A stretch of DNA of 64,000 bases, from the NCBI GenBank assembly GCA_951406725.2, contig OX597827.1:53320001-53384000 (forward strand), written 5' to 3'. Source of the DNA: Octopus vulgaris. Its lineage: Eukaryota. Made by a program: the position numbers and the translations under genes. The notes below the pieces were generated by a model that ran no database searches, had not been told where the DNA came from, and saw only the letters and a program-made list of their open reading frames with translations. Shown piece after piece: positions 1,349 to 62,479 of the stretch (position 1 is its first letter; each line of letters opens with the position of its first letter).

Positions 1349-1422
1349 TATATATATAAACACACACAAATAGATACATACATATATATATATATATATG
1401 TAAGAACAAACAGCTGAAAAAG

Positions 1423-3532
1423 ATGGAACTTTACTCGCTGGATTTTTCTCAGAAAAATATACCTATCCCTGCACGGAAACAATATCTCAAAGGTCTTATA
1501 GAGAAAACGGAAGAGTTTATTCGAAGATTGAGATGGAAAGCCTTCTTCTTTGATAATAAACAAAAAATAGAAGGAAACAAATATGGATTTAAGTCTCCCA
1601 GAAACCCGCCACCCATTCCGGAATTAGAAGCCTTCGAGAAAGACCTTTTCGAGCTTATTAGAAAAATTAAATTCCGCAAATATACCAACCAATTACAGAA
1701 AAATATGAGAGAAAAAATTAAGGAGATTAACGACTCGAATAAGATCTTCGTTAATTCAGATAAGACAAGGAACTTATATGCACTTGATAAGGACGTTTAT
1801 AAGCGCCTGATTTCGAATAGTGTCACAGACACATACAAAAAAGACAACACGAATATATACAAAGAGGTGAACTTAGAAGCAAGAGGAATAGCTAACGATC
1901 TTAAGATTAGCGATAGGATTGAATATCTTTCACCACGACCAGCTTTTATTACTCTGAAAGACCATAAAGCCAATTTTAGTAGAAACCCCAAATGTAGATT
2001 GATAAATCCGGCTAAAACTGAGATAGGAATTATTAGCAAAAATATTTTTGACCGTATTTTAGTTAAGTTAGATAGTGAAGTAGACTTGAGAATTTGGAAA
2101 ATAGTAAGTCAGTCATAGAGTGGTTTAAAGGTATTAGCTATAAGAATAATTGTAGTTTCACACAATTCGACATTATTGACTTTTACCCGTCAATATCTAG
2201 GACGTTGCTCCTAAGGGCATTGGACTTCGCCAAGCAGTATGTCAACATCGATAGCTCGGAAATTGATATTATTTTTTCGAGGATTCCACCTGGATTAAGA
2301 AGACTGAGGATTCTCTTTTCGATGTACCGATGGGGGCATACGACGGGGCTGAGTCATGTATGCTCATAGGAGCCTTTATTCTCCATAACCTAAAAATAGA
2401 ATTCCCATTTATAGATGCAGGTTTATATAGGGATGACGGCCTTATAGCCACGCATAATCTAAACGGCCATGAATCAGATAGACTTAGGAAGGACCTCATA
2501 GCTTTCTTTCAAAGGATGGGCTTACGGGTTATGATAGATGCTAACCTGAATAGTGTAGATTTTTTAAACGTAAATTTTAATGTAAGATCGGATAGATTTA
2601 AACCTTTCCGTAAGCCTAATGAAAAGCTATCGTATATTAGCAAAGATTCGAACCATCCACCAGTTATCCTTAGCAACTTAGTCAGCAATGTAGGTAGAAG
2701 AATATCTTCAATTTCTTCGGACGAGGCAGCATTCCATAATGCTGCACCTTATTACGATAGCGCATTAAAGAATAGTGGATTCTCTGAGAAGATCCAGTTC
2801 AACCAGCTTAATGCTGATAATAATGCTGCACGAAGAACTAGGACCAGGAAAGTTTTGTGGTTCAACCCGGCTTTCAATTTGGCCGTAAAGACTAATATAG
2901 GTAAGGAATTTTTGAGATTAGTTTCTAAGCATTTTAAGCAGGGTCATAAATTCTATAGGATATTTAATAGAAGAACCCTGAAGGTTAGCTATTCTTGTTG
3001 CAGAAATTTCGCCTCTTACATTAGCCAACATAATAGGAAGCTAATTGAGATTAGACATGGTGCCGAGCCCATTAAGAAATGCAATTGCAAAAACGAAAGC
3101 TCCTGTCCGTTAGAAGGGAAATGTCTAGTGAAAGGAGTAGTTTATAGAGCCAAGGTGCAAGTGGAAGGCTCATCGGAATACAAGACATACACAGGGGCTT
3201 CAGAAAATTCATTTAAAACAAGATTTTATTCTCATAAAAATTCATTTAAATACCCAGAGAATAGGAAGAAAACCAGCCTAGCAAAATATGTCTGGGAACT
3301 AAAAGAAAAAGAAGCCCCACCTTTCAACGTGACATGGAGCATTCTGGACAGGGTGGCACCATACAGGCATGGAGCATACAAAAATAATTTCAAGTGCAAA
3401 CTTTGTCTGTTAGAAAAAATGTACATCTTATTCAAAGACAATAATTCTTTGAATCAAAGACGTGAGCTAATGAACTTATGTATGCACGCGGCTAAATTTA
3501 AAATGTCGAATATAAATATACCATATGGATAG
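1423..3532 (+). pseudogene. PLE reverse transcriptase/GIY-YIG endonuclease ORF with two frame breaks (~2100 and ~2275)
   Basis: Motifs KNIPIP, RRLRWKAFFF, DKTRNLY, AFITLKDHK..NPKCRLINPAK, FDIIDFYPSI, MGAYDGAE, LYRDDGL, WFNP, KVSYSC, CNC..CPL.GKCL, GVVY..YTG..FKTRFYSH, CKLCLLEK, ELxxxCxH across ORFs 1423-2118, 2094-~2275 and ~2275-3532. Confidence 0.9.
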
Positions 3533-14319: not shown

Positions 14320-15741
14320 GTCTTATTTTTAACACTTGCTTTCACTTTACCACCGAGCGCAGCTCTGTGTGCCTTGGGTGTGGGCTGTAGTTTGTTGTGG
14401 TGCTCTTATTTTCACTGTATCGAAAGCATTTTACGTAGGATGTGTGTGGTGCCTAGTAGTGCTATTTTCTGTAGAGGGCAAAGAAATTTTGTTTCTTCCC
14501 ACGTATTGTGGGAATATGTTGACAAGAGACTGGGTCTGCGGGTTACCACCCGGGATAAAACCCAAGTGGATAGAGGAGACTATCCGCCGGGGTCTGGGTG
14601 GCTGCGGAGCCAAGCTCCTTAATGTGAAAGTTTTTCCTGCGGCTGATTGGGTTGGGCCAAAAGCTGTTTTGACACTGTGGACCCTATCAGCCAATCTGGT
14701 TTTTCCAGATTTTTCGAAAATGGCTGGATGCAGGTACAGAGTGATTCTTGAGGGTGCCCACACCCCCCGGTATCATCGGTGCCTGGAGCCTGGCCATATA
14801 AAAAAAACTGTCTCCAGTAACAAAGTAAGGTCCTGGGACAGTTGGTTGAGACCTCTGTAGAAGAGGGAATGAAGGCGACCGAGGAGGCGGAGGACTCCTC
14901 AAAGAAGGGCCGCAAGAGGAAGAAGGTGAGCAACAATGGGTGCTCACCGAAGGATCCTAGGGATGACGGAGGGGAGGCAAATCTCCCGGTCACGGAGGAG
15001 ACGCACCCTCCCTCAGGTGAGAAGAAAAAAGAGGAAGAGGAAGAGAAACGGAACATTGCCGGCAGTCGGTGATATAGTACCGGGATGTCCCGGAACCTCA
15101 TCGGTAGGGGTTGTGCTACCGGCAGGGGAAGAGACACCGTTGACGGGAACTCTGCCGCCAACGGTAGAATTGATTATCCCGGCCGCGGAGGAGGACGAAT
15201 CATTGGTCTTCTTCTATAGAAGCGGAGAGGTAGAAAAGGTGGTGCACACAGAATCCCGAATGGCCTCTGCAAATAGCTGTGGAGGTCATAACGTTGCTCG
15301 TGATGGATAGGCTGAAGGGACACAATGAGGAATATCGCATGTGGCCGGGCGACGCCGACACGGCACCCGCTTTGATATTGAATGAGGCGTGGGTGATTGC
15401 GGAGTATGCGGGCACAGGCGATGTTGAGGAGGAATAGTGATAAGAGATTGAAAAGCCTCATTGTTACTGAAAGTTCCGAGTTTGGAAAGAAAGGTAAAAG
15501 GTTTAGCGCCTCATTTTTTTTATTGAATTTTATTATTGAATATTGTGAACAGTGTAGAGGTTTGTTGCCTCATGAAGAATATACAAGAGATCAATATTCT
15601 CGAGAAAATTGATCGGCGGGCGTCGTTTTTTCCTCCCATTAATCATCATTTTCATTTTCATTTCATATAACATTATGCCTACGTCCAGCCCGCAGATTCC
15701 TTTCTCTGTGTAAGGCCTTATGGCTAATATAGTGAAATAAA
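14320..15741 (+). mobile_element. ORF1-only Tx1-like non-LTR element (gag-like, degenerate CCHC), 5'-truncated
   Basis: EILFLPTY..WVCGLPPGI..DWVGPKA..RVILEG..RCLEPGHIKK, homologous to the copies at 23000 and 25322; ends gtccagcccgcag..aataaa with no ORF2. Confidence 0.7.
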
Positions 15742-16158
15742 GAGGCTTGCTTCCCAAACACATGGTTCCGGGTTCAGTCCTACCGTAAATACCTTGGGCA
15801 AGTGTCTTCTGCTATAGCCTCGGGTCGGTCAAAGCTTTGTGAGTTGATTTGGTAAACGGAAACTGAATGAATCCCGTCGTATATATATGTGTGTGTGTGT
15901 GAACATGTGTGTTTATGTGTGTGTGTGCGTTTGTGTTTGTGTATGTGTATTTGTACCCCCACCACCGCTCGATAATCAGTGTTAGTGCGTTTACGCCCCC
16001 ATAACTTAACGGTTCGGCAAAATACACCGATAGAATAAGTACCAGGATTAAAAATATTAAGTCCCGGGATCGATTCATTTGACTAAGAATTCTTCAAGGC
16101 GGTGCTCCAGCATTGCCGCATTCTAATGACTGAAACAAGTAAGAGACAAAAGAAAAGT
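15742..16158 (+). mobile_element. SINE family A lacking its first ~30 nt
   Basis: Begins at gcttgcttcccaaacacatgg; body and tail match 817-1203. Confidence 0.8.
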
Positions 16159-16194
16159 TAATGTATTTGAAACATAATGGAAGACAAAGCTTTT

Positions 16195-16271
<77 letters not shown>

Positions 16272-16335
16272 CATATTACGGTTTTTGTATGTTTCTTAAA
16301 TGGCTTATAAACACCTTCCACGCTGCAATTGTTTG

Positions 16336-16404
<69 letters not shown>

Positions 16405-16747
16405 TTATAAATAAGGATAATATCGATATATAAATATCGATATTATCAAATGGCCAGCATGGGAATAAATACCATACAAAGGTAATAATTTTTCACAACT
16501 ATAAATAAGGTTGTCTGAGAGACACCACCATGCCGAAATAGCAGTCAAACCCTGGCTCTAAAAACCACCTAAAATTTTCATATCGTACCACGAGATAAGA
16601 CAGAGAAACAAAATAAACTAGCAAAAAGATATTACTGGATAATTCAAGATCCTGGATTTCTAGCTTTACTTCAAATAAGCTCTGCTTTCGTCAGTTGAAT
16701 ATACCACATTAGCACATAAATACAAAAATATATATACAGAACACACG

Positions 16748-16793
<46 letters not shown>

Positions 16794-16802
16794 ATATATA
16801 TA

Positions 16803-18005
16803 TTAGGTCGTCAAATATGAAATTTGTAGAACAGGAAAAAGTTTGCTAATATTTTATAAATACAAGGAATAGTTTTATTCATCAATGTATGCACCTATAT
16901 TGTCAATACACTTTTACCATTTCAGCGGTAGCTTGTCCAGCCTGGCAATCAAGAGTCAATAAAATCTTGGATGGCCTGTTTTACAGCATCGTCGGAGTTA
17001 AATTTTTTCCTATCAAAAAGTTATCCAAATTCTAGAAGACGTGGGGAATTTCCGACTCCAAATCCTGTAGTTTCGCGAATGTCATTTTGCGTTGTCTTGC
17101 AATAAAACAGGAGTGAATCTGTTGACTAATCTAGGCTGTTTTCTGTAAGTTTCTCCATCATTTGGTCCACTTGGCTGCAGTATACTTCGGCCGTGATTGA
17201 TGAGCCAGGTTTAATGAAATCATAATGGATCACACCTGCGCCAGACCACCCAACATACACCAGCAGCTCCTTTTGATGAATTTTGGTTTTTGGACTGTGT
17301 TTTGGTGGCTCGTTTTTGTCCAACCATTGTACTGGTCATTTACGGTTGTTATTTTGGATCTCATCACATGTTACAATTCGATTCAAAAATGATTCATTTT
17401 TGTGATGAAAAAGTAGTATAATGCAGGCTTCCAAATGTTGCTGTTTCTGATTTCCATTGAGTTCATGAGGAACCTACTTATCCAACTTCTTCACTTAACC
17501 GATTTGAACTAGGTGAATCAATATTGTTTGCTTGCTAACACCAAACAACAATGATAATTCCCGTGCACTTTGTGATGGACCTGACTCGACGGTGGCTTCC
17601 AGTCCATCATTATCCACTTTTGTTTCTAGTCGACCGCATTGCACATTTATAAGGTCAAAGTTAACAGAACGAAATTGTGCAAGCCAATTTGATACTGTCT
17701 GCTATGTAATAACATTAGAATGAAATATTCCATTTATATTCCGCGCTGTCTGTGATGCTGCATTTCCAAGAAAGAACTCATATTTTAAAATTGTTCGAAT
17801 TTCCGACTTATCCATCTCTGAACAAAAATAGTAAAAAACGATTTATAAATACTTTATAAAGCGCAAAATAAGTTAGAATAAAGAAATAGATGTGTCAGCT
17901 TTCTAACAAAAAATAAAGATTGTCACAATATAATAATGGCGCAAAATGAGCAGCTGTCAAAGTTTACCATATACCTTACTACAAATTTCATACTTGACGA
18001 CCTAA
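16803..18005 (-). mobile_element. Decayed mariner (DD34D) transposon
   Basis: TA-flanked TIRs ttaggtcgtcaaatatgaaatttgtag / tacaaatttcatacttgacgacctaa; minus-strand MDKSEIRTILKYEF, VPHELN and RIVTCDE motifs. Confidence 0.88.
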
Positions 18006-18039
18006 TATATATATATACACATGGAAGTAGAGAATAGAA

Positions 18040-18880
18040 AAGATGAACAGAGGGTACATAAGTTCACCATGGAAATACTTATAGAATAGACAGAACGAAG
18101 ATAAGTTTTGACGATGAGCCAAAACTTCCACATTAAATAGAAAGAAGAGTACCCACCATATTAACGATTCGATCCTAAATTCGACCAAGTAAATAAGAGA
18201 CCCGGAGGAGGCACCAGCCTAAAGATAACAGCAATGTAAGAAACTTGTAAGCAAGGAAGAAAGATCCAACCTTCTTGGCAGTCGACATGGCAATGGACTG
18301 AAAGTGCTTGTTCCAAGAGAGATGACGTCGGATACTATAGCTTTCTGAAAGATCAGTGCCCCCGCCCATAGCAATGGAGGGGAAGGATGGCTACCTATAA
18401 TGATTAGTTGACAAAAGCTTTATATTGCCAGCATTAAAAGTCACCAGTCAGTCACTATCCCATTTCATGACCGCATGAAGAACAATCTTAAGAAAGACAA
18501 CCAGCTCAAAGTCGCTAATTTTGTCATGACCAAATTAAGGAGCTGTACCATCGACATAGATGGCAGTTTAGAAACAATTTCGTCTGGAAGATCATTAATG
18601 AAAAGGAGAAAAAGAGTAGGACCAAGTACAAAACTTTGGGGTACTCCAGCAGTGATACCATATGCTTCCAACTGCCGGCCATCAATGACCATCTTCGTTG
18701 TACAACTTGAAAGAAATGACTTTATGTTGAGGAACGGCCAAGGCAGACCATAGCCTCTGAACTTATAGGTCAGTCCAGCCTACCATACTCTGTCAAAGGT
18801 CATTCAGATATCAAGAGCGATGATTCTAGCTTCACCAAAAGAGTTAAGGGAACGATAGAACCGTTCAGATATGACATTGG
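18040..18880 (-). mobile_element. LINE RT fragment (Jockey/CR1 group)
   Basis: GVPQSFVLGPTLFLLFINDL plus upstream IIALDI and FDRVW motifs; frameshifted. Confidence 0.8.
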
Positions 18881-19529
18881 GTATTTTACTTAAATTGAGA
18901 AAAGCTATTTGACGGCCCTCTGTAGTGTTATAAATAACATAGTCTTACATATAGAGACATATACTTGGTTCCAACCAAGGTAGTTTAACATGCAGGTCAT
19001 TATTATTAACGTCAAAATCATTATCATAATCTATACTGTATTTTTAACTTTTTTTACGTATTTCAACTTGTAGATCAATGTGACATGCCAAATAATTTCT
19101 CAGATTCAACCGGCTATGCATTTGCATTTGAATGTGTCCCATTTAGCTCGGGAAAATATAGACAATATAAAAAATAATCACCGTAGAGATGATCACGTTC
19201 CCATGGTCTATGTGGTGAGATAAGAAATGTGCGAACTCTGCCAGTGTTGAGTTGTCACATATTGCATCTTAGAAACATGTTGAATGTCAAAATCTTTCAT
19301 AGTCATTGTTAAAAATAAATGAACGTGTGAAATCTCTTACACACATATGGGCGAGCGCGCATACATACACACACGTCCCCTCCATAAAAAAACACATATA
19401 TGAAAGTTTGAAACTTTGGACGTTAATACAAAGCCCACACTAGTTTTCTTTCTTCATAACCGTCTGAAAATGTGTGTTTTTAATGAGATATTCTCAAATG
19501 CCTTTCAGGTTGTGTAGATTAGGGTTATA

Positions 19530-19702
19530 TCGGAGCAGGGGGTATTGACACCATTGTTCGACTGGTACTTATTTCATTGACCCCGGAAGGGACGAAAGGT
19601 AAAGTCGATCCCAGAAGAATTTAAACTCAGAACGTGAATTCTAAAGAAATGCCGCAAAGCATTTTGTTCAGCGCTGTAAAAATTTTGCCAGCACTCCATC
19701 TT
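19530..19702 (-). mobile_element. Diverged SINE family B
   Basis: Reverse complement of the gagttcaaatt..gcctttcatcc..aagtaccag consensus. Confidence 0.65.
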
Positions 19703-20199
19703 TATGCTAGAACTAATTATTGAATAGATATTTCATCCATTATTTTATTACAATCTTAATCTCTCTCTTTAAACAAACTCAAGAGTAGTCCATACCAAAC
19801 GTTTTCATATTGTATACTAGAAACAGTAGGAAACACATAGGTCTCAAAAGTATTTTTTTTTTTGCATAATTGTAATTAAATCATAATTAATCTTTTGCAT
19901 AATTGTAATTAAACGATATGGAAAGAAAGTCGAGATGCGTGAAAAATACGTTTCTCCTCAGTTTTTTTTCATACTAAATTCTTCTAAAATCGTAATCTAA
20001 ACAATCTGAAAGTTATTGGTAGAAAATTTCATTAAAAAATACTCATTTTTATGAACTCTACGAGGAAACAAATTTGAAGTGCGTGAATTATCCGAAACAC
20101 TTCTCCACAGATGTTTTTCACCAATATTCCGGTATAATCATTAAATATACCGTCTGAAGCGTATTTGAAGAAACTTTCATTAGAAATATTCGTTTTTCA

Positions 20200-20402
20200 T
20201 AAGCGAGCAGGCCAACAGAAGAAAGAGTGAGAGAAAGTTGCGGCGAAAGAGTACAGCAGGGATCGCCACCACCCCCTACCGGAGCCTCGTGAAGCTTTAG
20301 GTGTTTTCGCTCAATAAACACTCATAACGTTCGGTCTGGGAATCGAAACCGCGATCCTACAACCGCGAGTCCGCTGCCCTAACCACTGGGTCATTGCGCC
20401 TC
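20200..20402 (-). mobile_element. tRNA-derived SINE family C
   Basis: Minus-strand head gaggcgcaatgacccagtggttagggcagcggactcgcgg..ggtttcgattccc with A/B boxes, followed by a non-tRNA body. Confidence 0.7.
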
Positions 20403-20513
20403 ACACACACATAGACACACACACACACACACACACGTATGTGTGCACGTTAGTATTGTTTGTGTATAAATATATGTGTATATGCATATAATACACATGT
20501 ATATGTATGTATA

Positions 20514-20574
<61 letters not shown>

Positions 20575-21208
20575 GGTTTTTATTGATTTGTGAAACGTGA
20601 AATGTATTTTGTGTGTTTAAAATGACGGTTGTGAAGATAATGTGAGGCAGAAGTTTCGATATTAGTGAAAAAATGTATTAAGCGAAAAGCCGTTCAGTGA
20701 AATTAGATCTATGTCACCTATATAGATTTCCTGAAAGGACTAGAAGAGGTGAGCGGAAAAGCAGAAGTGTTGTAACCATTATTGTATTTTGTGTGTCAAG
20801 TTATGAAGAGTTTTTTTATGATTATTTTGTGTGTTTTGATTATATTAATTTGTAAATTGTTTCTTGATGTTATGCTTGTTTTCTTAAATGTGCTTATTAA
20901 TAATAATAAATGAATATATAGGAATTGTACTTGCTTGGCAAGTGACATGATCTAAGTTTGTATGTTGAAACTCAAACAGATTGCGCGTGAGTCATGTTTG
21001 TCATAAAAAAGAATAACACATATACCGATGCATTCAATTTCTTAGCAGTATTATATTCTATAAATGTGGAAACGTTTTAACACTTTCTAGTTTACAAAGA
21101 AAGAAAACAAAAATGAGTAATAAATTATTACTAAATGTACATAATTTGAATAATATATATGATTACTATTTGATTATTTAAGTCCAGTTTCGTATCATAC
21201 AAAGGAAT

Positions 21209-21554
21209 AAGGCAGCGAGCGGGCAGAATCGTTAGCGGACTGGATAAAATGTTTGACGGTATTTCGCCCGCCGCTACGTTCTGAGTTCAAATTGCCTTTC
21301 ATCCTTTCGGACTCGATAAATTAAGGACCATTTGCTTAATCCGTTTGTCTGTCCTTGTTTATCCTCTCTGTGTCTAGCCCCTTATGGGTAGTAAAGAAAT
21401 AGGTATTTCGCCCGCCGCAACGTTCTGAGTTCAAATTGCCTTTCATCCTTTCGGACTCGATAAATTAAGTATCAGTGAAACAAAGTGTCAATGTAGTCGG
21501 CTAGTCTCCTCCCCCAAAATGGCTGCCACTGTGGCAAAATTTGAAACCATTATT
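21209..21554 (+). mobile_element. SINE family B, internally duplicated, with 12-bp TSD
   Basis: atacaaaggaat at 21197-21208 and 21555-21566. Confidence 0.8.
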
Positions 21555-22953
21555 ATACAAAGGAATTGAATTTCTCTTTGGAATAAAGTCTGGAACCTAT
21601 TTTAATTAAATTTATTTCTCATACCATAACAAGATCCATAAAATATGAACTCAGTCAGTGTCAGTCGATTTTGTACACAGGCTGCCATGGATCTGGAATG
21701 ACTCAAAATTAACTTAGATAACGTACTTTGCATAAATGAAATACATAAAAGACAAACATACTGTCTGCAACAAGGTTTAGTTTGGTCCCAGGCTAAATTT
21801 TATTCAACAAACTGTTATTCTTAATTCGTAATTTTAGAATATTTTGTAGAATATACATTGTCCACAATAGAAAACAATGTTTAATTACAGTGGAAACTGG
21901 ATAATATAACGTTAATAAAACTATTAATATCATTTAAAAAATAACATTTTAATATGCTACAAAAATCTAGTTGCCACCTCGTCTAAGATTTTCGTAATGA
22001 CTTTTTGAAATTGTCTAAAGACTTTGTAATATCTAATTGTAATATCTAATTGTCTAAAGACTTTGTAATATCTAAAGACTCTGTAATATCCTTTATATGC
22101 GCTGAGAATCGGAGGGAGACCAGAGTCGGAATTAACACCAGTTCCGGTTAGTGAAATAGATGTAACTCAGAGAACATGTCCTTATCTCAACCAATAAATA
22201 AATTAAAAAAAAAAAGCCTGTAGATCCATGCACTAAAAGATGGGATATATTTTCCTTTTACTATGTCTATATGTTCAGAGCAAAATAGTTTTTTTTATTT
22301 CAAATCCATACACGTGTGCAATTTTCTAAAGTTTTGCAACTGAAACCATGCAAGCTGAAACCTATTTTCTTGAGACATTCATTGAGACAATATTTAACAT
22401 CGTTCTTTTTCTAAAGACTCTTAGACTATAAGATTGTGTATATATCGTGTGGATCAGTCTTTCTTACACATCCCTGCACACCAACACATAATCTGCACAC
22501 AACTCATAATCTGCACACAACACATAATCTGCACACAACTCATAATCTTTTTCTCTATTTTTTAATAAAGTTGTTATATTGATATCTTCATTAAATTAGT
22601 TCGATCTACATTATGAACTGAGATTTTAGGAATAATTTTCCCTATCTGGCTCACAAAATCCAGTTTATGCTTCAATTTGGCCCGCAGAGTGAGCCTAATT
22701 GAAAATAAATGCTTGAGATAAATGCTTTCCAAGTCTAAACAAGTTTTTAAGATAAGATATCAGTATATCAAATCTAACTTTTCTAGTTATCTATTTCTTA
22801 CATCTAAGAGAAAGATAATGTAGAGTAAATTATAATTCACAGAAACGCAACGAATCATTCGTAGCCGATGAACAGAGTCCTACTCAAAAGTGGGGATTCA
22901 CTGAAAAGCATACTGATAACAAAGCAAATATATTGCACGAGACATCTACAAGT

Positions 22954-23000
22954 AGGCGTAGGAGTGGCTGTGTGGTAAGTAGCTTCCTTACCTAACCACA
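22954..23000 (+). mobile_element. Head only of SINE family A
   Basis: aggcgtaggagtggctgtgtggtaagtagcttccttacctaaccac, then an abrupt switch to the ORF1 element. Confidence 0.75.
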
Positions 23001-23930
23001 GAAGAATTCGTGCTGCTTGGAAGTCACGTCTTTTGATGTGAAAAATTGAACATTTGAAGCACTTTTTAGCGAGAATTGTGTGTTTTCGGGAGGTGTGTCA
23101 CTCCGAAAAGTTTTTGAAAATTTCTATGACTGTGTTTATGTCCTTTCAAGTGGATTTTTACGATAAAGGATAAGAGTACAGACGGAGTTGAACGGAATAA
23201 CATTTGTGCTGCGAAGGACTACCAGTTTGCATTACCAGTAGCAGAGTTGTGTTGTGTTGTGTTGCCATTTTGGAATATCTTCCTTCGCTCTTTTTTCTCA
23301 TCTGTCTTTCTAATCTTTTTTGAATTTTTTATAGACTTTCACTTGAACATTTTGATTTTTGTTTGTAGATTTTTTCTTGTTTTGGCTATCAACATGGCAA
23401 CAGCGAAATCTGCTTTGGCGTGGCAAATTCTGGCCCCCAAAGAATAGGTGAAAAATTATACGGAGAGAACGGTGGTGTTAAGGACCTATTCCAGGGTCCT
23501 TGACACCATCAAGGTCTTCTCTGAGAAAGAAATTGTGGAGGAGTTGGCAGACTAGCTACCAACAGTTAAGTTCATCCGCAGGGTTGCGAAGTATGGAACT
23601 GTGTGTGTACTTTTTAACACCCCTGCGGAACCTCGTGATTTTGCGACCACGCCTTTGGAGGGGGGAAAATTTTGTTTCTCCCTACTTATGGCGGTAGAGG
23701 GTTGACAAGAGCCTGGGTGTATGGACTTCCACCCGGTATAGAGGCCTAATAGATAGAAGACACTATCAGTGGAGGCCCTGACAGGCTCTTAAACATAAAA
23801 ATGTTGCCTGCGGTCGATTGGGTCGGGTCAAAAGCAATTTTGACCTTATAGGCCCAATCGGCTGAAGATCTGGTTTTGCCAAATTTTTTAACAATGGGCG
23901 GTTCCAGGTACCCGGTGATAGTTGAGGATA
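23001..23930 (+). mobile_element. 5' part of an ORF1-only Tx1-like element
   Basis: ATG at 23394: MATAKSALAWQILAPKE*VKNYTERTVVLRTYS, homologous to MANIKSALEWEVIPPKQWIKNFKRRTVVLRTYS; contains stops; truncated by a SINE. Confidence 0.7.
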
Positions 23931-23939
23931 CTGCATCAT

Positions 23940-24130
23940 TTACATCGAGCACAGTACTCAACTGGTATAAAATAAGTTGAGCCCAGTACTCAACTTATTT
24001 TATCGACCCCGAAAGAATGAAAGACAAAGTCGACCTCGGCGGAATTTGAACTCAGAACGTAAAAACGGACAAAAGGTCGTTAAGAATTTCGTCTCGCATG
24101 CAAATCGATTCTGCCAGCTCACCACCTTGA
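23940..24130 (-). mobile_element. SINE family B
   Basis: Reverse complement of the family-B head and body. Confidence 0.7.
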
Positions 24131-24242
24131 ATCGTGATAATATTTACACTCAACAGACACTGCAGATGAAGGGATCTCCGTCGATCAAGATTGACCTTTT
24201 TTCTCTACAATTGTATGCAGGCCTGAACAATTATTATTATTA

Positions 24243-24303
<61 letters not shown>

Positions 24304-24954
24304 CATTACTATTATTCTTATTATTGTTATTATTATTATTATCAGTATTATATGAGGACAGTCTTTTGCTATGCTTCCAAGTATTGCAATTCTCCGGCTT
24401 CCTCTTTCCTCAGCACCGGTGTTATGCAAGTGAAAGGCCAATACTGTCTTGCATCAGTGACCTCGCAAACATTACTGATAGGACACAAACAGACGGAACA
24501 AGTACCCCAACACAACTTCCCTGACCCTCGAGAAGATCCGCCAATTCCTTACCTTCGATTAGCATTATTTTTATCAACCACGAAAAGGTGACAAACAAGG
24601 TTGATCTCAGGGAGATTTGAACTTATCCAGAGAACGACTCTACCAGTAAGCCGCCTTCAACAACTAGCACCCACCTCACACGTTCACAAACACACACACA
24701 AAATACACATAACACAACACACACATACACACATCACAACACAACACACTCATACACAAGACACTCATACGCACACACACACAGAGAACAACATAAAACA
24801 AATACATATGTCAAACAATCAAATCAGTCACTTCTCATACAGTGTTGAATAAAGGAAAGGCTTTTTCTTTATCTCCTCTTAACTTTCCGCTTTCGGCGCC
24901 TAATCACTAACTTTTGTAATTGTTCAGTACTTTTTTCTTTTTTCTGTTTTTTCT

Positions 24955-25321
24955 CTTTTACTTGTTTCAGTCATTTGACTGGCCATGCTGGAGCTTCGCC
25001 TTTAGTCGAAAAAATCGACCCCAGGACTTCTTTGTAAGCCTAGTACATATTCTATCAGTCTCTTTTGCCGAACCGCTAGGTTACGGGGACGTAAACACAC
25101 CAGCATCGGTTGTCAAGCGATGTTGGGGGGACAAACACAGACACACAAACATACACACACACATATATATATACATATATACGACGGGCTTCTTTCAGTT
25201 TCCGTCTACCAAATGCACTCACAAGGCTTTGGTCGGCCCGAGGCTATAGTAGAAGACACTCACCCAAGGTGCCACGCAGTGGGACTGAACCCGGAATCAT
25301 GTGGTTGGTAAGCAAGCTACT
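24955..25321 (-). mobile_element. SINE family A lacking its first ~25 nt
   Basis: Minus strand begins agtagcttgcttaccaaccacatg directly after the ORF1 element's aataaa. Confidence 0.8.
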
Positions 25322-27285
25322 TTTATTCATCAAATTGGCCATGAAAGCCGTACATAGATAAGTAACTGCGGGCTGGACAAGGACATTAATGTGATGAGGA
25401 TGATAACGATAAAATTGAATAAAAATAGGTGGGGCAACGGCGCCCGCCGACCGATAACCTCTCGAAAACAATGTTCAATCTAAAATCAAGAAAAATTAAT
25501 ATACAGTAATTAAATACAAATATAAAAATTCCAAAAACAAAAATTCGTTTTTCATTCCTTGTCCGGGACCCCAAGTAAGTTTCCTGCCGCCTGCAGGAAA
25601 GCCTGCATTGGCAGGCCCGGACGGAAGGACACAAAATCTTCATTATTTTACTCCTGAGCTCAATTAGTTCTTCTTGGGTGATGGCCTCCGCAGCCACCGG
25701 CGAAGGCCAACAATGACCGTCTATACAGACCAAGTCGTATCGTTCACAGTCTAAAAGACTATCCAAATACATCTCAACAGGCCTTCCCTTGAAATAGAAA
25801 ATGAAAAGTTCCACCCCTTTCTCACGGGGTGGGGCCTCAACCTTCTCTGTCAGGGCTTCTCGCTCCGGTGGCACACTTCCCACCGGGGGAGCCTCGTGTT
25901 CGGACGGCGGCACAACGACATCCGCTGACCATCTCCAATTTCACTTCCTTCCTCTTTTTCAGTTACGGAAGTCGGGGCCTCCGTCGACACACCCGGGAGG
26001 TCCTCTTCCTCTCCCGCAACCTGCACTTCAACTGGTGAGCAACCACCATTGCTCACCTTTCTCTTTCTTTTCGTTGAAGCCGACGCCCCAACGACTTCCT
26101 CCGTTTCTCCCTGCAATGGGAGAGAGGAGGGCACCTTAACCTTTTCCTTCTGCGGGACCTTACCGCGGCCCCGGGGGCAGACTTTCTTAATGTAGCGTGA
26201 CTCCAGGAACGAGTGACACATGGGGAGCGGGGAGACCCTCACGTATCACTGGATATCTTGAGCCATCCATTTTCAAGAACTAGGGAAAGTCATTTCACCC
26301 GCGGTTACTGGGGTCCATAGGGTCAAAGTTGCCTTTGCACCCTCTCAGTCGAACGCAGGCTTTATCTCTATATTTAAGAGCCTGGGCCCGCTATCCCACC
26401 AGGCCCCACCGGATGGCATCTGCAATCCACCCCGCTTCGTTGCCCGGGGTCAGAACCACATACCCAAGCCCTAATCACCTTCCCACGATATGCGGGAAGA
26501 AACAAAATCTCCTGCCCTTCCAGGGGCTGGCCTGCCACAGTGCAAGCCTCCTCAGGGGTGTCAAAAAGCAGCCACATCGTGGTGTATTTGACACTCCTGG
26601 TTACATAATAATTTTTGGCTGGCAAACAATTTGCCAGCTCTTTACTAATAATACCCTTGTCGAAGAGGCCGGTGGCGTCACGTGACGTTGAATAGGTCCT
26701 TAGTACTACCGTCCTCCTCTTAAAGTTTTTAATCCATTGCTTAGGTGGAATAACCTCCCACTCTAAGGCACTTTTTATATTTGCCATGTTAAAAATCAGT
26801 TCAAAAGAAGAAAGAAAGTCCAAATAAATTAACAAGAAGTTCAAAAAGAAATAAACAAGTCAGTCCAAAGAATGAATAAAGATAAAATCCAAAAGAAACG
26901 CAAAAACAGTTCCAAAAAGAAAGAAAAACACAGAAGGATAGAGAAAAAAAAAAACCAGTTTACACAGCAAACATCAATGGCCAACAGGTACTCATGGCCA
27001 ACTTCGTAGGTTCAATGGTAATCCAACAAATTCCAATGGCAAAATCCAGTAAGTTCGGGCGAGAATACGCCCCCTTTTTTTTTCTCTTTTCCCAATATAA
27101 CAAAACAACAAACAGCAGCGAAATTTATCAACAAACAAACAATTACTATTCAACAAATTACACCCAGCTCAAACGAAAACAAAACCACCTACCTCAACGG
27201 TCTTATGCTGATGTTCTTTTTTCTTTCAGTTCAATATTATACGGAGATGACAACACACTCACGTCCACCTCGTCCAAAGAAGTGT
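25322..27285 (-). mobile_element. Apparently complete ORF1-only Tx1-like element (~1.96 kb)
   Basis: T-rich 5' UTR, frameshifted ORF1 from ~26787 (CHSFLESRYIKKVC degenerate knuckle), short 3' UTR gtccagcccgcag..aataaa; no endonuclease or RT sequence. Confidence 0.72.
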
Positions 27286-27661
27286 TGTAGTAGTTTAAAG
27301 CTTCTGATATCGTCAAGAGATTAAATAAGTTAATTCAGTTTGTAATTTCAGACTCGCATCATTGAAGTAATATCAACCAGTACGCCAATCACAAAGAAAT
27401 GTGCATCTTCTAATTGCCTGATGAGAGTGTTTTTATCATCCTTCAAGAGCTGCACTTTATTTTTCACCTCAAATAATTGCATGTACATAAATCTTTTATT
27501 TAGACATCATGCATACAATAATTTAATAAATCATCATACTCTATTTCGAATTCCGTCAAAATTTCCTTAAATTTTCAGTTTTCTCCAAGTTAATACATTC
27601 TTTTACCAGTTTCAACACATTCAGAAAGAATGTGTACATACATTTTATTAGCGAATAATAT

Positions 27662-38334: not shown

Positions 38335-38611
38335 GTAAGTATAAACTTAACATTGGATTTTTCGCATCGAAACCAAATTCATTAAAACTTAGTTAATTTA
38401 AAAACTGTTTCTAAGAGTAGTTTTCTTATACACATTCTTAAGACCGACCTCATTGGAAAATTTGGGGGTTACAGTCAAAAGAAGAGGTGAATAAATCAGC
38501 CGTAAATTTTGAAGATAATATTATCACTAATACACTGGAAGCGAGTATTATGTTTAATATAGAGCAACACTCATTTTTACTAAGATAAACACCGTACTAG
38601 TTTATATGTAA

Positions 38612-39008
38612 AGGTGGCGAGCTGGCAGAAACGTTAGCAGGCCTGGCGAAATGCTTAGCGGTATTTCGTCTGCCGCTACGTTCTGAGTTCAAATTCCGCC
38701 GAGATCAACTTTGACTTTCACCCTTTCGGGGTCGATTAAATAAGTACCAGTTACGCACTGGGGTCGATATAATCGACTTAATCCGTTTGTCTGTCCTTGT
38801 TTGTCCCATCTGTGTGTAGCCCCTTGTGGGCAGTAAAGAAATAGGTATTTCGTCTGTCTTTACGTTCTGAGTTCAAATTCCACTGACGTCGACTTTGCCT
38901 TTCATCCTTTCGGGGTCGATAAATTAAGTACCAGTTGCGTACTGGGGTCGAGCTAATCGACTGGCTCCCTCCCCCAAAATTTCGGGCCTTGTGCCTAGAG
39001 TAGAAAAG
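38612..39008 (+). mobile_element. Intronic SINE family B, full-length, with 9-bp TSD
   Basis: tatatgtaa at 38603-38611 and 39009-39017; internally duplicated body. Confidence 0.85.
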
Positions 39009-39100
39009 TATATGTAATATAATTTAATTTGGGATAATCAACAAATACAAACTTTTTTCTTGGTTTCATTGGGCAAAACAAATTTTATTTTTCATTGCAG

Positions 39101-48124: not shown

Positions 48125-48181
48125 ACTACGCTCATTATTATATTAGATGCCTGTGAAATCACCATGGGAGAACACCAGATA

Positions 48182-49451
48182 CGAGGGGCGTTCAATAAGT
48201 AATGTCCCTGACCCACTTCCCATAGCAGTAGAGCAACGACACTTGGCACATTTATTAGTCTTTTCCTACATAGGAACTACCCAGAGTTATGCATTTCTCC
48301 CATCGTTTGATACAGCTGTGGAGACCGTTTTTATAGAAGACCCCAGCTTGGTCCTCCAACCACGACGTGACTTCAGAAATCAAGGCTGCATCATCTGGGA
48401 AACGCTTTCCTTTCAAAATCAACTTCATGGCTCGGAAGAGGTGAAAATCAGAGGGTGCAAGGGGAGGAGTTCATAGCTGCACGCCTGTGCTTCTGATCTG
48501 GCGACACGCGAGTTGTGGACCGGAGCGTTGTCCTGCAGGAGGAGGATGCCTTTGCTGATCTTGCCCCGCCTCTTGATTTTGATAGCTTCTCTTAATTTCC
48601 TCAAAAGTGAAGCATAATAGGCTTCTGTAATTGTGGTACCCTTTGCCAGGAAATCTGTCATCACTGCTCCGTCCTGGTCCCAGAAGACTGTGAGCATAAC
48701 CTTGTCAGCGGAGGGCTGCACCCTTGCCTTCTTTGGAGGAGGTGAGTCACGGTGCTTTCACTGCATTGACTGGGCTTTGGCCTATGGATCATAGTGATGG
48801 ACCCAAGTTTTATCCTGTGTGATCAGTCTTTTGAAAAATTTTGACTCATCCTCTTGGCACATCTCCAAATTCATCCTCGAGCACTCAACGCGTTCTTGCT
48901 TCTGGAAAGGTGTGAGCAACCTGGAAATCCATCTGGCAGACACCTTTTGCATATGCAAATGGTCATGAATGATAGTTTCCACAGACCCGGTACTAATCTT
49001 GACTTTATGGGCTATTTGGCGAATAGTTATGCGTTGACCTTCCAAAATGGCAGCCTCAACTTGACGGACAGACGTCTCATCAACGGCAGAAGGGGGCGAC
49101 CAGATCTGGGAGCTGTTTCCACAGAGTTCCGATTATGTTTGAATTCACAATGCCAGCGTTTTACAAGGTCATATGATGGGGCATCATCACCATAAGTTAC
49201 TTTCATTTCATCAAAAGTCTCCCGTGGTGTGCGTCCTTTCAAATACAAAAACCAGATCACTGCTCGACACTCAACAGGCTCCATTTCACACTTGACTCAG
49301 TTCAAATACCTGTAAATCAGAAACCACAATTAGTTCAGAGCTGTAATTCGCCACTTAATCTATAGAGGTATAAATAAGTGCACATGCAAAATTTCAGCTA
49401 GATCAAACAACTGCAAGTGGGTCAGAGGCATTACTTATTGAACGCCCCTCG
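48182..49451 (-). mobile_element. Near full-length mariner (DD34D) with frameshifted transposase
   Basis: TA-flanked TIRs cgaggggcgttcaataagtaatg / cattacttattgaacgcccctcg; MEPVECRAVIWFL, ITQDKTWVHHYDP, KVMLTVFWD, LLQDNAPVH, LAPSDFHLF; the YSPD segment is deleted. Confidence 0.92.
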
Positions 49452-49989
49452 TATTATGAAATATTGTACATGTGATGAGTTTGTTATATTTCTAAGTACA
49501 GCAAGTGTGGTGTATAACTTGATATGTCATACGCCACACTAATCTTGATACCTGCAGCTACGATTACACTTTGTGTTAAAGGAGAATAGTTTGTTGTGTA
49601 ACCACTGAATCTTACCGTATAAGGATTCAGTGCAACTTTGACGTGAGACGTCCGGATGAATTGTGGATAACATTAGTATGTAGAGAGGAGTGATATTTTC
49701 TGCAGAAGTGTGTTAATAAAAGCAGTTTTAAAGAACGTGAGTGAGGCGAAATAAGTCCATGCGGTGAATAAAAATTAGTATTGAGTTGGAGATTTTTCAG
49801 TGGATGTTACAAAGCAGTAGACCAACATAAACATGCGATCCAAGAAATTGAAGACTCAAAGAGATTTTAAGCAGGTAGCTAAGCTTGACAGTCAAAATCA
49901 ACATAACTTTGGCTGAACTTCAAAGGGACAAGAGAATAAAATAAGAAAAGCAAATATTCAATAGATATCATTATATGTAAGATGTATTA

Positions 49990-52896
49990 GTGGCTACTGA
50001 GAAAGGAAATAGCTTTGAGCTAGCAGATCCTTATAGGTTGGAATTTCCGAACGCTCCATTGTGGACATGGTCAAACAGCGACGGATCTTCCAGGTCATAT
50101 ATAGATAGGATACTAATTAGAAAAGTAGACAGAAAAATAGCTAAGTGTCCACAGTTTTACCTGGTCAGCTACAGTGATCATAAAATGGTCACCTGTAATC
50201 TTGACATAGATAAGGTTAAAAATAGAGGCTCCGGTTACTGGAAACTTAATACGTCCCTTTTGGTGATTAAGGAGTACAGAGACCGGATTAGGACTATAAT
50301 TCAGAGGGCGCTATCTGGTGCCATCATTAATAACAAATGGTGGTATGCCCTCAAGCGAGCCATCAAATTCGAGTCTATTAGATATAGCATAGGATTAGTG
50401 GCTAGAGAGGCTAGGGGGGAATCTACTCTAGTTAAGGAATTAGAGGAAGCCTTGAAAACTGGCTCTGCGGTTCAGGTGACGGCCAAGAGACTGGCGTTAA
50501 ACCAGCACCTCGAGGCCAAACACATGGGCTGCATTGTCAGGGCTAGGATCCGCGCAATGGGTTGTGAAGGAATCAACGCCGTGAGATGGGCCCGAGTGGT
50601 GGAAGCTCAGCGTAGTAACGACGCCACGATTCGATCTATGACAAACCAACAAGGTGAGTTGATAAACGAGCCCGAGGAGATGTGTGAGGCCTTTCAGGAG
50701 CACTTCGCTCAGCTTTTCGGTGAGTGCGGCGGACTGGATAGGAGGAGGGCCTTTACGGACCTCCTCGACGGGCTGCTGCGCTTATCGGGGCGAGATGCGG
50801 AGGGCTGTGAAGGGCCAATCACGCCTGGGGAGGTGGTTGAGGCGATGGCGGACTGCGGCGCGGGCAAGGCGCCGGGTTTAGATGGTCTACCCTATGAGTT
50901 ATATAAGAGTATGCCAGACTTGTTCGGGCACCTACTGGCGGAGGTCTATACGAACTGGCAGCAGAACGGGTTCATACCCAGATCTGTGCGCCGGGGAGTA
51001 GTGACACTCGTCAGAAAGGACCCGAGCAAGGGGGAGTGCATTGATAATTTCAGGCCCATCACTCTGCTAAGCACAGAGTTGAAGATTTTGGCCAAAGTGT
51101 TATCGAAAAGATTGGCGCGTGTCGCGGATGGTCTGATCGGGGAGGCACAGACATGTGCCGTTCCCGGCAGAACCATTCAGGATAATCTCCATCTTATGCG
51201 GTACACTATAGAGAGGTTTAATAGTGATTCTGGCAAGGGTGGGGCACTGGTCCATTTAGACCAATCTAAAGCATTGGATAGGGTCGACCATCGCTACCTG
51301 GTATCTGCCCTGGCACAGTTCGGGCTGGGCCTTGGCTTCCTCAGGTGGATTATCCAAATTTACGACAACATCGACTCGGTAGTTCGGGTGAACGGCTTCT
51401 TGTCGAAGCCGTTCGACATCAAGCGCTCGGTTCGTCAAGGGTGTCCGCTCTCCCCGCTTCTGTACGTGATGGCTCTTGAGCCATTACTGCGAAAACTGAG
51501 CGGCATCCCGAGACAGCCAGGTAGTGGAAAATCGGTGTCAGCGTACGCGGATGACAACACCACCATCGTAACCGAAATGGATCACCTACGTAAAGTAGAC
51601 AAGGCCATAGAGGTTTACGAGACGGTGACAGGAGCAAAAGTTAATCGCGAAAAGTCAGTCGGCTTGCAACTCGGCACCTGGAGAGGCAAGTCGATGCCTC
51701 CTGACAGCGTCGTGGGACGTTGGACGGAGGGTCCGATTAAGTTGCTAGGGGTTTGGTTCGGTCCAGACCTCCAAATAGAGAAGAATTGGGGCGAGGTATC
51801 GAGCAGGGTGGCTGCAGTAACCAAGATCTGGTCTTGGCGGTGGCTATTCCTGAAAGGGAGGGCGGAGGTAGCCAATGTGTTTATCGCATCGGTTATCACC
51901 TACCGCCTTTCCGTCGTTCCTTGCCCTGATTCGTAGTTGATCAAGTTGGAAAGACAGCTCTTCTACTTCTTGTGGAAGGGCGGGAAACCACTTGTGAAAC
52001 GCTCTACTTGCTGTCAACAACCGTTAAAGGGTGGGCTAGGGATGCCTTGGCTGATGATGCGCAGACATGCGCTGAGGTTAAGACATCTGTGGCTCTACCT
52101 GGATGGTGAACAGGTGTGGTCTCCGCTAGCAAAACTGATGTTTCCCAAGTTCACTAGTTTCGGTGGATGGGAAACCTGGCTGAATCGTAGATCGAAACTG
52201 GGCACATGGTACACGGAGTGTCGCAAGGCTCTCCTGCTATTCCGTCGCTCGGGCAACGCCTGCGGTGGGGGTTCCACCACATTCTTCTATAGAGGGTTGG
52301 TAGAGGCGGAATGGGAAGATACCTTGGGGGAAACCCTAGGTCTCGACGATAATCAGCTGGCCAGTCTGTTCCGATGTACGTTCGAGCCGAAGACACTGGA
52401 CAACTTCCAGATGTCTCTGGCATGGCAATGCTACAGAGGAGCTCTACCTGTTCGGGATAAACTCGCAAGGCACGGTGGCCAAGACAGTCCTATATGTCCA
52501 AGATGCGAGCGGGATAGGGAAACCGTCCCGCACGCTATTGTTCATTGTTCGGTCGTGTCTGAGGTGTGGGTTTATGCCGAACAGTTGTTGTCAAGCACAC
52601 GAAGAGTACAGCTATCGACTGAGTCTATTACAAAAATTGACCCACCAGATTTCCTCGCGAAAGAAGGTAAAAATTGTTTTCTCGTTGTAGTAGCAATTGC
52701 GAAAGAGGTGATATGGAAGACGAGAATGAAAGGTTTACGGTCAGGCAAGTTCATCTCCGGCCCTGGTTTGATGAATTACTTCATCTTTCACCTGAAAAGG
52801 AAGATAGGGCTGGAGAGAAAATGCCTGACTAAGAGAGTGTATGAAGAACGATGGAAAGATGTAGCACGAAAGTTGCGAGTGGATGATACCACATAA
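49990..52896 (+). pseudogene. Tx1-type ORF2 (endonuclease C-part, RT, zf-RVT) with a single in-frame TAG at 51934-51936
   Basis: SYIDRI, SDHKMV, GYWKLN, KAPGLDGLP, NFRPITLL, LDQSKALDRV, VRQGCPLSP, AYADD, GGLG, CPRC..ETVPHAIVHC; the two ORFs are in the same frame. Confidence 0.9.
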
Positions 52897-53135
52897 ATGT
52901 AAAACTAGACGAAACCAAAGTATCAGTGGGGAGGCGGGGCTCGTGGGGTCCGAGCTAAACCCGCTCCCACTCCATCCGTAATGTCTTCTGGTCTGTTCCT
53001 CATTCGATTTTTGATATTTTTGTAATTTTTGTAAATTTTTAAATTCGCCTTTTTTGTAAACCCATTCGTTAATATGACCCCACATCAGGTTGTATTGTCC
53101 CCTCTATGTTTGCCCCTTGTGGGTAATAATAAAAC
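50015..53135 (+). mobile_element. 5'-truncated Tx1/L1-clade LINE (ORF2 plus 3' UTR)
   Basis: APE C-terminus, RT, zinc-finger region, then 3' UTR ending aataataaaa. Confidence 0.9.
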
Positions 53136-53199: not shown

Positions 53200-54753
53200 G
53201 TTGATCCTGTATCAGTTATTATCTGGTTATTATTGTGTATCGGTGAGTGTCTATAGTGACTTTTGTTATTGTTGAACTGTTACATTCGTTTTGTTGAAAA
53301 ACTGTGATAACTGCGTGTGGCAGTCCTTTTTGTTACAATTTCCCCTTGTTTGAAGTGGGAATTATTGTTTTTCTGTGGGGCGTTAGTCTAAAGGCATTTT
53401 TATTCCGTGGGGCATATTTTCCCATTAATTTATTTTCCGAGGGGCGTTAGCTCAAATCTTGTATTTAAACAATGTTTGACTCAATTGAGTCGGAAAAAAA
53501 ACTGTCAGGACCAATAATTGGATATGCCAATCTTATCGTCACCTATGGCACCAGTGCAGCCTCCAGCTACACCAAAAGCCAATTTTGCTGATGCTGCAAA
53601 AACCTAAACAAGAAACCTCAACACTGAGTTGAGTGAAATAAGCAAATTTAAAGGGATATTGAAAAACGAGGGGATGGAAGTCCAAACAACCCTCCAATTG
53701 AAATTACGCACTTAACAAACAGGACAAACATAATTTTCAAAACATATATTGTAAAAGAAGAAAAACAAGACGCGGCGTCTATAGAAGCGGTAGAGAGGTG
53801 TCTCTGACCAATCTGGTTGGACATCATCTGCATAACACGTGTTAAGAAGTTTGCTGCCATCGAGGTGAGATTCACAAACGAAGAGAATGCCAGGCAGCAT
53901 TCTACGAAGACTTTAAGGACGTCAAAAGTAAAGATAAATGAAATACCACCAGAAGTAGATGCTGCCTGGCTAGTGGCAGCAGCAGTTGTGGCTTGGAGGA
54001 CAAAATGTCGATCCTCCAAGCAACAGCAACCGAAAAGCAAAATTGGCAGGGGTAAGGACTCGAAATGTTAATCCAAGCAGCCCCTGCTGATTTAGACGAA
54101 ATTCCAGGAGTGATCCAGGTGAGAGACACAATGCTAATAGCGATGGTAGAGGGGAGGAAGCCTCGCTGTTTGAAATGTGGCAAGAAAGGCTACATAAGGA
54201 CAGAATGCGGCTCTACCCCCAGAAAAAATGGTAGCTCCCCACCATCAGAAGAGGAAAAAACAACAACACCAACTACAACGGAGGAAATGACGAAAAAGGA
54301 AAAGTCTCCCACGAAGGAAATAGACAGAGATAGCGACGAAGTAAAAGGTGAGAGGTGGAGCACAAAATGTGGGAAAAGAAGAAACCCACAACCCACATAT
54401 GCAAGCACCTCATCACATGCACACAAAAAGAAAAAATCTACAACAGTACCAGAAAAAAAAAAGGAAGACAGAAACGTAATGGCAGTCAAAGAAAGTAACT
54501 CAAGGCGGCAGCTTGATTAGATGTGGTACAAACAGCAAAAGCTGTGGACTGTTATAAAGGACCAAAAGGGATAAATATATTTGCCACAGACATGAAAAAC
54601 TATCAGATTTTGAAATCTGAATTCCATCATAACATAGGCCCTCTTCGAAAAGACGTTTCCCCCAAAATTTTTGAGGGCCTATCAAATACCATCCCACAAT
54701 CCAGCGCAGACGAATTGAGAGATGGCCATAACAGGCCATCTCGCACCATATAA
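53200..54753 (+). mobile_element. Decayed ORF1 (gag-like CCHC) of a Tx1-like element
   Basis: VEGRKPRCLKCGKKGYIRTEC knuckle and KVKINEIPPEVD, related to the other ORF1 copies; multiple frameshifts. Confidence 0.7.
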
Positions 54754-62146: not shown

Positions 62147-62479
62147 TATATATATACACACATATATATATGTATGTATGTATGTATGTGTGTATATGTG
62201 TATGCATGTATGTGTGTGTGTGTGCGTGTCTGTGCTTGTGATTGTCCTCCACCACTGCTTGACAACGAATGTTGGTTTGTTTACATCCCTGTCACCTAGT
62301 GGTTTGACAAAGGAAACAGATAGAATAAGTACAATGCTTACAAAAATAAAACTGGAGTTGATTCATTAAACTACAATTCTTCAATGGCTGGAAAAAGCAG
62401 AAGAATAAAAGAATACATTCTCTGCTTTGTTCTTATGTTCAAGGCATGAGAAAGCTTGAGTTTACATGAGAAGGCCTAA

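Follow-up and report, generated by a model that had tools for sequence, protein, structure and literature searches.

The Octopus vulgaris stretch analysed here (64,000 nucleotides of contig OX597827.1, positions 53,320,001 to 53,384,000, hereafter the window) contains three decayed copies of a retroelement that encodes only ORF1, the first of the pair of open reading frames (ORFs) carried by a full-length long interspersed element (LINE). Each copy retains an end that lies against a short interspersed element (SINE) with a tRNA-like head, which we call SINE A. The copies and the adjoining parts of SINE A are arranged as follows.

14473..15739, + strand: Copy 1, the 3' part of an old ORF1-only element, with a broken ORF1, the 3' untranslated region (UTR) and a hairpin tail
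15740..16153, + strand: SINE A body, beginning at the target base (AAGAGGCTTG..., a degenerate AAGTAGCTTG)
22953..23000, + strand: SINE A head with the A-box-like TGGCTGTGTGG; target cut after 22976, then a 24-nt target-like run
23001..23927, + strand: Copy 2, the 5' part of an old ORF1-only element, with an internally deleted 5' UTR and a broken ORF1 from 23393
24949..25322, - strand: SINE A body, beginning at the target base AAGTAGCTTG
25323..27272, - strand: Copy 3, a near-complete old ORF1-only element; ORF1 ATG at 26787, the frame interrupted by stops

Copy 1 is approximately 75-77% identical to the complete copies at loci L147 and L139 from window position 14473 on, its 5' part being gone or replaced by other repeats, and Copy 2 is 84-87% identical to L032, L048 and L154. 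Copy 1 ends with ...GTGAAATA at 15739 and SINE A continues from 15740 (AAGAGGCTTGCTTCCC...); on the minus strand, Copy 3 ends with ...GATGAATAA at 25323 and SINE A continues from 25322 (AAGTAGCTTGCTTACC...). A first-pass annotation of this DNA had noted that the two 3' ends meet SINE A at one point and that Copy 2 follows a SINE head stopping at 23000, and we confirmed these junctions at 15739/15740 and 25323/25322 and the head at 22953-23000. Its caveats stand as well: no copy in the window retains both ends, Copy 2 having no 3' part, and the 5' flank of Copy 3 has no head (about 70 nt of its 5' end are gone, and no SINE head lies near 27272-27290).

Because only five target sites are present on the two strands of the 64-kb window, allowing up to 4 mismatches in 22 nt, the fact that three element ends, two 3' and one 5', lie on such sites is not a matter of chance. 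The cut falls just after the A-box-like motif of the SINE and about 30 nt before its B-box-like motif, and the insert has the orientation of the SINE. ARAGORN called no tRNA genes in the window, and Pfam searches with the window ORF1 fragments and the ORF of L032 returned nothing significant. The octopus SINEs OK, OR1 and OR2 are cited in PMC4758252.

Elements at SINE A across the genome

The genome searched comprises 2.8 Gb in 227 contigs, and the queries consisted of element sequence without SINE. The 3' end of Copy 3 yielded 513 candidates, of which 40 were scored and the best 30, including the window copy, were fetched; 23 of these 30 old 3' ends lie at the target, 21 passing into a SINE body at AAGTAGCTTG and 2 reading on from these bases into a tandem copy. 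Copy 2's 5' end as query produced 115 candidates, and a SINE head lies upstream in 26 of the 30 fetched loci (Copy 2 included). Members of a young ORF1-only subfamily measure 2.23-2.35 kb and carry one 414-aa ORF with a CCHC motif (Pfam score below cut-off). A query from the 3' part of this subfamily gave 2,417 candidates, and all 30 fetched end at GTGGT^AAGTAGCTTG, with a SINE body following in 29 and a full-length LINE in 1. Searching with the ORF1 protein brought up 10,598 first-look candidates, 150 of them listed; 20 of these, picked for long open frames, were fetched, and none of the 20 has an ORF2 between its junctions, while the 5' side is a SINE head or another element in every one. 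A fixed 3' end, variable 5' truncation and a target-site duplication (TSD) are all present in the ORF1-only family. Some 45-55 nt in from the 5' end lies a GGACG(T/C)G motif reminiscent of a downstream promoter element.

The same site is used by a full-length LINE of 5.45 kb with two ORFs and an APE-reverse transcriptase (RT)-zinc finger organisation, hereafter the partner, the ORF1-only element being referred to as the passenger. The first junction pattern for interrupted SINEs gave 25 matches, and ORF2 was found neither within 1.5 kb upstream of these 25 junctions nor inside the insert in the 14 that were extended; the partner surfaced only with a looser pattern. A query made of the ORF2 end and 3' UTR gave 1,831 candidates, and in all 30 fetched the 3' end lies at the target (28 followed by a SINE body, 2 by another element). 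By the published convention for target specificity (more than 20% of flanks of one type; PMC4494074), the partner, at 30/30, is a target-specific family. Among 22 longer stretches, the intact 5' start is preceded by a SINE head in 19 and by an ORF1-only copy in 1; another is cut back about 12 nt after the head, and the last has no detected 5' start. ORF2 is open over at least 1133 codons in 7 of the 22, and both ORFs are open in L234.

Partner ORF2 carries the Pfam domains Exo_endo_phos, RVT_1 and zf-RVT, and ORF1 carries zf-CCHC at the Pfam cut-off (20.8 bits); a CCHC knuckle in ORF1 is typical of Tx1 elements. The best PDB matches of ORF2 are human L1 ORF2p (E 1e-66, compared with 1e-19 for R2), and no named Tx1 reference was among the protein-search matches. 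On these sequence features we describe the partner as Tx1-like; the analogy with Tx1 drawn in the first-pass annotation is borne out to the level of the APE, RT and zinc-finger domains. L1-Tx1 is the only L1-type group among the recently active O. vulgaris LINEs in Table 1 of PMC13282606, which is indirect evidence for the clade. Older ORF2 sequences occupying this site match L234 at 75-84% identity along their main segments, compared with 47-58% for a control LINE, indicating that the targeting is old. This control is a sister element in the window:

49981..53135, + strand: 5'-truncated sister Tx1-like LINE with RVT_1 and zf-RVT

Its ORF2 and that of the partner are 60.5% identical (681/1125), and its family is at the SINE A site in 0 of 30 cases, which rules out this window LINE as the partner. 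The endonuclease domains of L234 and the sister family differ in their hairpin loop (WMSGDGKFKSY versus WSNSDGSSRSY).

Exact 28-nt patterns matched interrupted SINEs at 627 places and intact SINEs at 62,403, with 0 matches for the reversed controls, so about 1% of well-conserved SINE copies have been hit. The first 30 interrupted SINEs on contig C1 comprise 19 with an ORF1-only element, 6 with ORF2 right upstream, 1 with a second SINE (SINE B), 1 with a short tail only and 3 plain SINEs with a one-base insertion. The SINE B insert (L062/L178, G000:C1:129328864) has a GCC..TGGC hairpin tail and a 14-nt duplication. SINE B is a third kind of passenger at the SINE A site, seen once among these 30.

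The idea of a SINE-targeting retroelement, raised in the first-pass annotation, is supported by 30/30 young ORF1-only, 30/30 autonomous and 23/30 old ORF1-only loci. Two findings would have spoken against it. Random flanks were not found, since flanks sit at the target site in all three family samples; nor was the SINE body a fixed, co-mobilised 3' part of the element lacking an upstream head, given the heads upstream in 26 of 30 loci.

Independent insertion and the ends of the elements

At 29 young ORF1-only loci the mean identity is 99.8% for the element and 93.1% for the next 125 nt of SINE, and the SINE is as similar as the element, or more so, in only 6 of 406 pairs, with one truncated SINE body in the sample. 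The corresponding values for the full-length LINE are 99.5% and 93.2%, with 0 of 378 such pairs. Ten young ORF1-only copies are 98-99.7% alike over the full 2.2 kb and yet their SINE bodies belong to two subfamilies, which are also found among the targets of the full-length LINE. Inserts truncated at the 5' end to 41, 46, 155, 156, 159 and 249 nt still abut SINE heads, and private target variants are present on both sides of the insert in L140, L149 and L150. Because the SINE bodies diverge more than the elements, truncated copies abut heads and private variants are duplicated, the elements entered already existing SINE copies in separate, independent insertions. The truncated-copy test of independence has also been applied to SINEU-3 (PMC4494074).

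Where the target differs from the start of the element, the exact duplication is 8-12 nt; where it does not, the duplication appears to be 15-18 nt. The TSD is about 9-12 nt long. The 18-20-nt overlap of junctions that the first-pass annotation had read as a TSD is longer than the TSD itself, and the 24-nt run at Copy 2 is atypical. In TTA-type SINEs the 5' side reads TAA in 9 of 9 full-length copies (L186, L187, L222, L229, L235, L237, L136, L140 and L141; L145, with another 5' end, was left out of the count), from which it follows that the elements carry target-like 5' bases and rebuild the site. Full-length 5' ends in the young families of both kinds start with GCTAACC. Tandems of the two families occur in both orders (L202, L214, L239, L285, L138, L142 and L150), and another element follows 3 of 60 young 3' ends, small numbers to be set against a site occupancy of about 1%.

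Two unusual forms of the ORF1-only element were also seen. Internally deleted copies that keep both ends (L162, L061, L077 and L003), of which L162 joins the 5' 63 nt to the 3' 41 nt, are possible seeds of minimal non-coding derivatives. A short truncated copy (L069, G000:C4:37365487) follows a reverse-oriented SINE head, possibly through 5' inversion or template switching.

Probable mobilisation in trans and its alternatives

We hold with high confidence that the window copies belong to a decayed, approximately 2.2-kb ORF1-only family of retrotransposons without long terminal repeats (LTRs), that the target of this family is a single base in the SINE head, and that it is likely mobilised in trans, through target-primed reverse transcription (TPRT), by the Tx1-like LINE of the same site. 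The shared site, the tail and the mixed tandems make the step in trans likely. The APE endonuclease of the full-length LINE would nick the bottom strand at …CTACTT^ACCAC, and the freed TT end would pair with the terminal AA of the element RNA. ORF2p would recognise the shared 3' hairpin, in trans in the case of the passenger, and a second nick would fall about 10 nt downstream. Target-like 5' bases may then assist 5' joining, rebuild a usable site and so yield mixed tandem chains. Each insertion would separate the A and B boxes by 2-5 kb, and the RNA polymerase III promoter of that SINE copy would be silenced. The TPRT biology behind these steps is described in PMC3747384 and PMC4494074.

The tails of 22 of the 30 pattern loci and of two window copies (24 in all) show a covarying hairpin common to the two families, a 4-bp stem with a 5-nt loop, ahead of an A-rich end that lacks a poly(A) run. 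Stem pairing holds in 95.8% of cells, with four two-sided changes; slid controls reach 4-55% and 0 of 500 shuffles are as high, a shuffle result that is inflated by taking the 4-bp helix from the same alignment and by the relatedness of the sequences. The young passenger and the young full-length family have a terminal GAAATA in common, their tails otherwise differing outside the hairpin.

Passenger ORF1 has a single full-length protein relative, an Octopus sinensis protein at 64% identity. Among eight open copies (about 195 codons, synonymous divergence dS up to approximately 2), the ratio of nonsynonymous to synonymous divergence (dN/dS) is 0.12-0.24 in 27 of 28 pairs and 0.48 in one near-identical pair. 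As judged from these codon substitutions, ORF1 of the ORF1-only lineage has been under purifying selection.

Several observations weigh against the interpretation given above. Passenger ORF1 matches partner ORF1 at 29% over 196 aa (E 8e-25), hardly closer than its 25% match to the control LINE, which points to a long-separate passenger lineage and does not show direct descent from the partner. The control LINE and SINE B have a similar hairpin, so the hairpin alone does not explain the choice of site. Only the best 40-150 candidates were scored per search, which favours young and intact copies. Among the old 3' ends, 6 of 30 go elsewhere (L010, L016, L017, L024, L025 and L029, three of these flanks starting with AAGTAG), and L002 joins the SINE about 22 nt deeper; on the 5' side, 4 of 30 loci have no recognisable head, one being a tandem and three having only a target-like motif. 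A head without a duplication is seen at L158, mismatches occur among the first 10 nt at L151, L224 and L233, and L145 has a different 5' end. Finally, no orthologous empty site was shown: none of the public contigs at L140 bridges the unique flank and the junction, and the joints in that comparison that skip the element are intact SINE copies elsewhere.

We weighed three other explanations. A single ancestral composite of SINE head, element and SINE body, amplified as one unit, would account for the same junctions in the window and in old copies, and for a TAA/TTA variant at the 5' junction that tracks the element subfamily. It would not be expected to give SINE bodies far more divergent than the elements, with two subfamilies inside one 99.5% element family, or truncation points that vary while the head stays constant; the inserts at the site are also of three or more kinds (ORF1-only, two-ORF LINE and SINE B), and mixed tandems are present (L202, L214, L239 and L285). 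The composite is largely refuted, and we give it almost no credence.

It is also improbable, though the least so of the three, that the ORF1-only family was moved by a different, unsampled LINE whose specificity is equal or overlapping, or by several such LINEs in the course of time. The low ORF1 identity with the sampled partner (29%), the older ORF2 lineages at the site (75-84% to L234) and the differences between partner and passenger tails outside the hairpin all fit such a history; against it, the young passenger and the young full-length family, each at least 99% identical, share the same base, the common GAAATA and GCTAACC, and mixed tandems. A slightly poorer prospect is that the true or ancestral target is the D-loop of tRNA genes and that SINE heads are look-alikes. 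The head gives a weak colinear alignment with tRNA genes in which the cut falls at the D-loop-equivalent position, and small RNA genes serve as targets for related elements (PMC4494074, PMC3706591). However, all 60 sampled young insertions lie in the SINE or in tandems at the SINE site, no tRNA match was found at 9 off-target loci, and Rfam gave no tRNA match to a SINE A copy, only low-complexity matches. The first-pass annotation had suggested checking whether real tRNA genes are hit as well: 0 of 30 tRNA loci have the target at the matching place, a weak test, especially of ancestry, as it covers 6 amino-acid types.

Returning to trans mobilisation by the same-site LINE, we favour, with more reserve, a wider three-tier system. 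In it a recently active Tx1-like LINE would have an endonuclease specialised on the promoter region of a SINE that is among the most abundant of the host, and a long-lived ORF1-only "half-Tx1" with a selected ORF1 would exceed it in number by about 3:1 at the site, the 5' ends of both tracking the SINE subfamily and rebuilding the site.

Related systems and neighbouring elements

Tx1 LINEs that target transposons include Xenopus Tx1 in Tx1D and, in crocodilians, Tx1-Mar in Mariner-N4_AMi, Tx1-8_Crp/Tx1-4_AMi in LTR elements and Tx1-9_AMi in Harbinger, with SINEU-3 as a passenger (PMC4494074). Like these, the octopus partner is an APE-RT LINE with a fixed site within another abundant repeat; the site is common to a non-autonomous passenger, tandems form around the TSD, and truncated copies reveal independence. 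Unlike in these systems, the target in the octopus is a SINE head of tRNA-like type, with the cut lying between its promoter boxes, and, unlike a passenger of the SINEU-3 type, the main octopus passenger is a 2.2-kb protein-coding ORF1-only element in a mollusc host.

HAL1 (half-L1) is a non-autonomous LINE derivative that encodes ORF1p only, is long-lived and has several subfamilies (PMC5753468). The octopus family likewise codes for ORF1 and no ORF2. HAL1 derives from mammalian L1, whereas the octopus ORF1 has a CCHC knuckle and its relatives are octopus Tx1-like ORF1 proteins; the octopus element also differs in ending with a hairpin and GAAATA without a poly(A) run and in being site-specific, which HAL1 is not known to be. 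The octopus family behaves like HAL1 but is not classed as HAL1.

Fixed insertion in high-copy sequence of small-RNA type is likewise known from Keno (U2), Mutsu (5S), Dewa (tRNA-Leu spacer) and the Dada DNA transposons in tRNA genes (PMC3706591, PMC4494074). Those sites are functional RNA genes or spacers, in contrast to the selfish tRNA-like repeat that holds the sampled octopus insertions. Our literature search, which lay outside Repbase Reports and most subscription papers, found no report of a SINE-targeting or octopus Tx1 element or of an ORF1-only Tx1 derivative. A study of O. vulgaris repeats (PMC13282606) counts active L1-Tx1 families, and the words "target", "nested" and "ORF1" are absent from its main text.

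These results add a SINE to the sequence-specific targets of Tx1-type LINEs and place an ORF1-only passenger outside mammalian L1, with one genomic parasite using another as a landing pad. They make testable why non-autonomous LINE derivatives retain ORF1, dN/dS being about 0.2 across subfamilies up to saturating synonymous change, and how APE endonucleases switch targets, as one genome contains an ORF2 that is intact and SINE-targeting alongside a 60%-identical sister whose preferences differ. If our interpretation is correct, the intact copy is a single-base-specific APE retrotransposon, its sister would be useful for mapping target choice, and every insertion also disables a SINE promoter, with a small impact on the SINE population at about 1% of copies. 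For annotation, the nested composites will be miscalled as SINE or LINE subfamilies.

The family of the control LINE (L086-L115) is itself young, many copies having an open ORF2 of about 1132 codons, and it forms 5.27-kb tandem arrays, for example at C22:14.18-14.24 Mb and on C27 and C30. Recurring 3' flanks (AAAACAATTCCAGTCTG in 8 of 30, and other repeated ones) indicate that this family has its own target preferences. Window 53500-54520 (+), which lies just downstream of the control LINE, contains a decayed ORF1-like frame with a weak zinc-knuckle match; no ORF2 follows, and the frame may belong to a further ORF1-only element or to a truncated Tx1-like one. SINE B occurs in the window at 38611-39010 (+) and 21224-21480 (+), in each case with a Tx1-like tail (…GTCCTTGTTTGTCCC…GCCCCTTGTGGGCAGTAAAGAAAT) followed by its own internal AGGTATTTCG…, an arrangement resembling the insertion of SINE B at a fixed position within another copy of itself.

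Two further features belong to other classes of element. Immediately following a SINE A copy plus a microsatellite, 1360-3532 (+) has frames of Penelope-like RT and GIY-YIG type, assigned by visual inspection of the translation; the 421-aa frame there gave no Pfam match. A Mariner-like remnant with 40-nt inverted ends lies at 48179-49454, and in L073 the element is interrupted by a member of this Mariner-like family.

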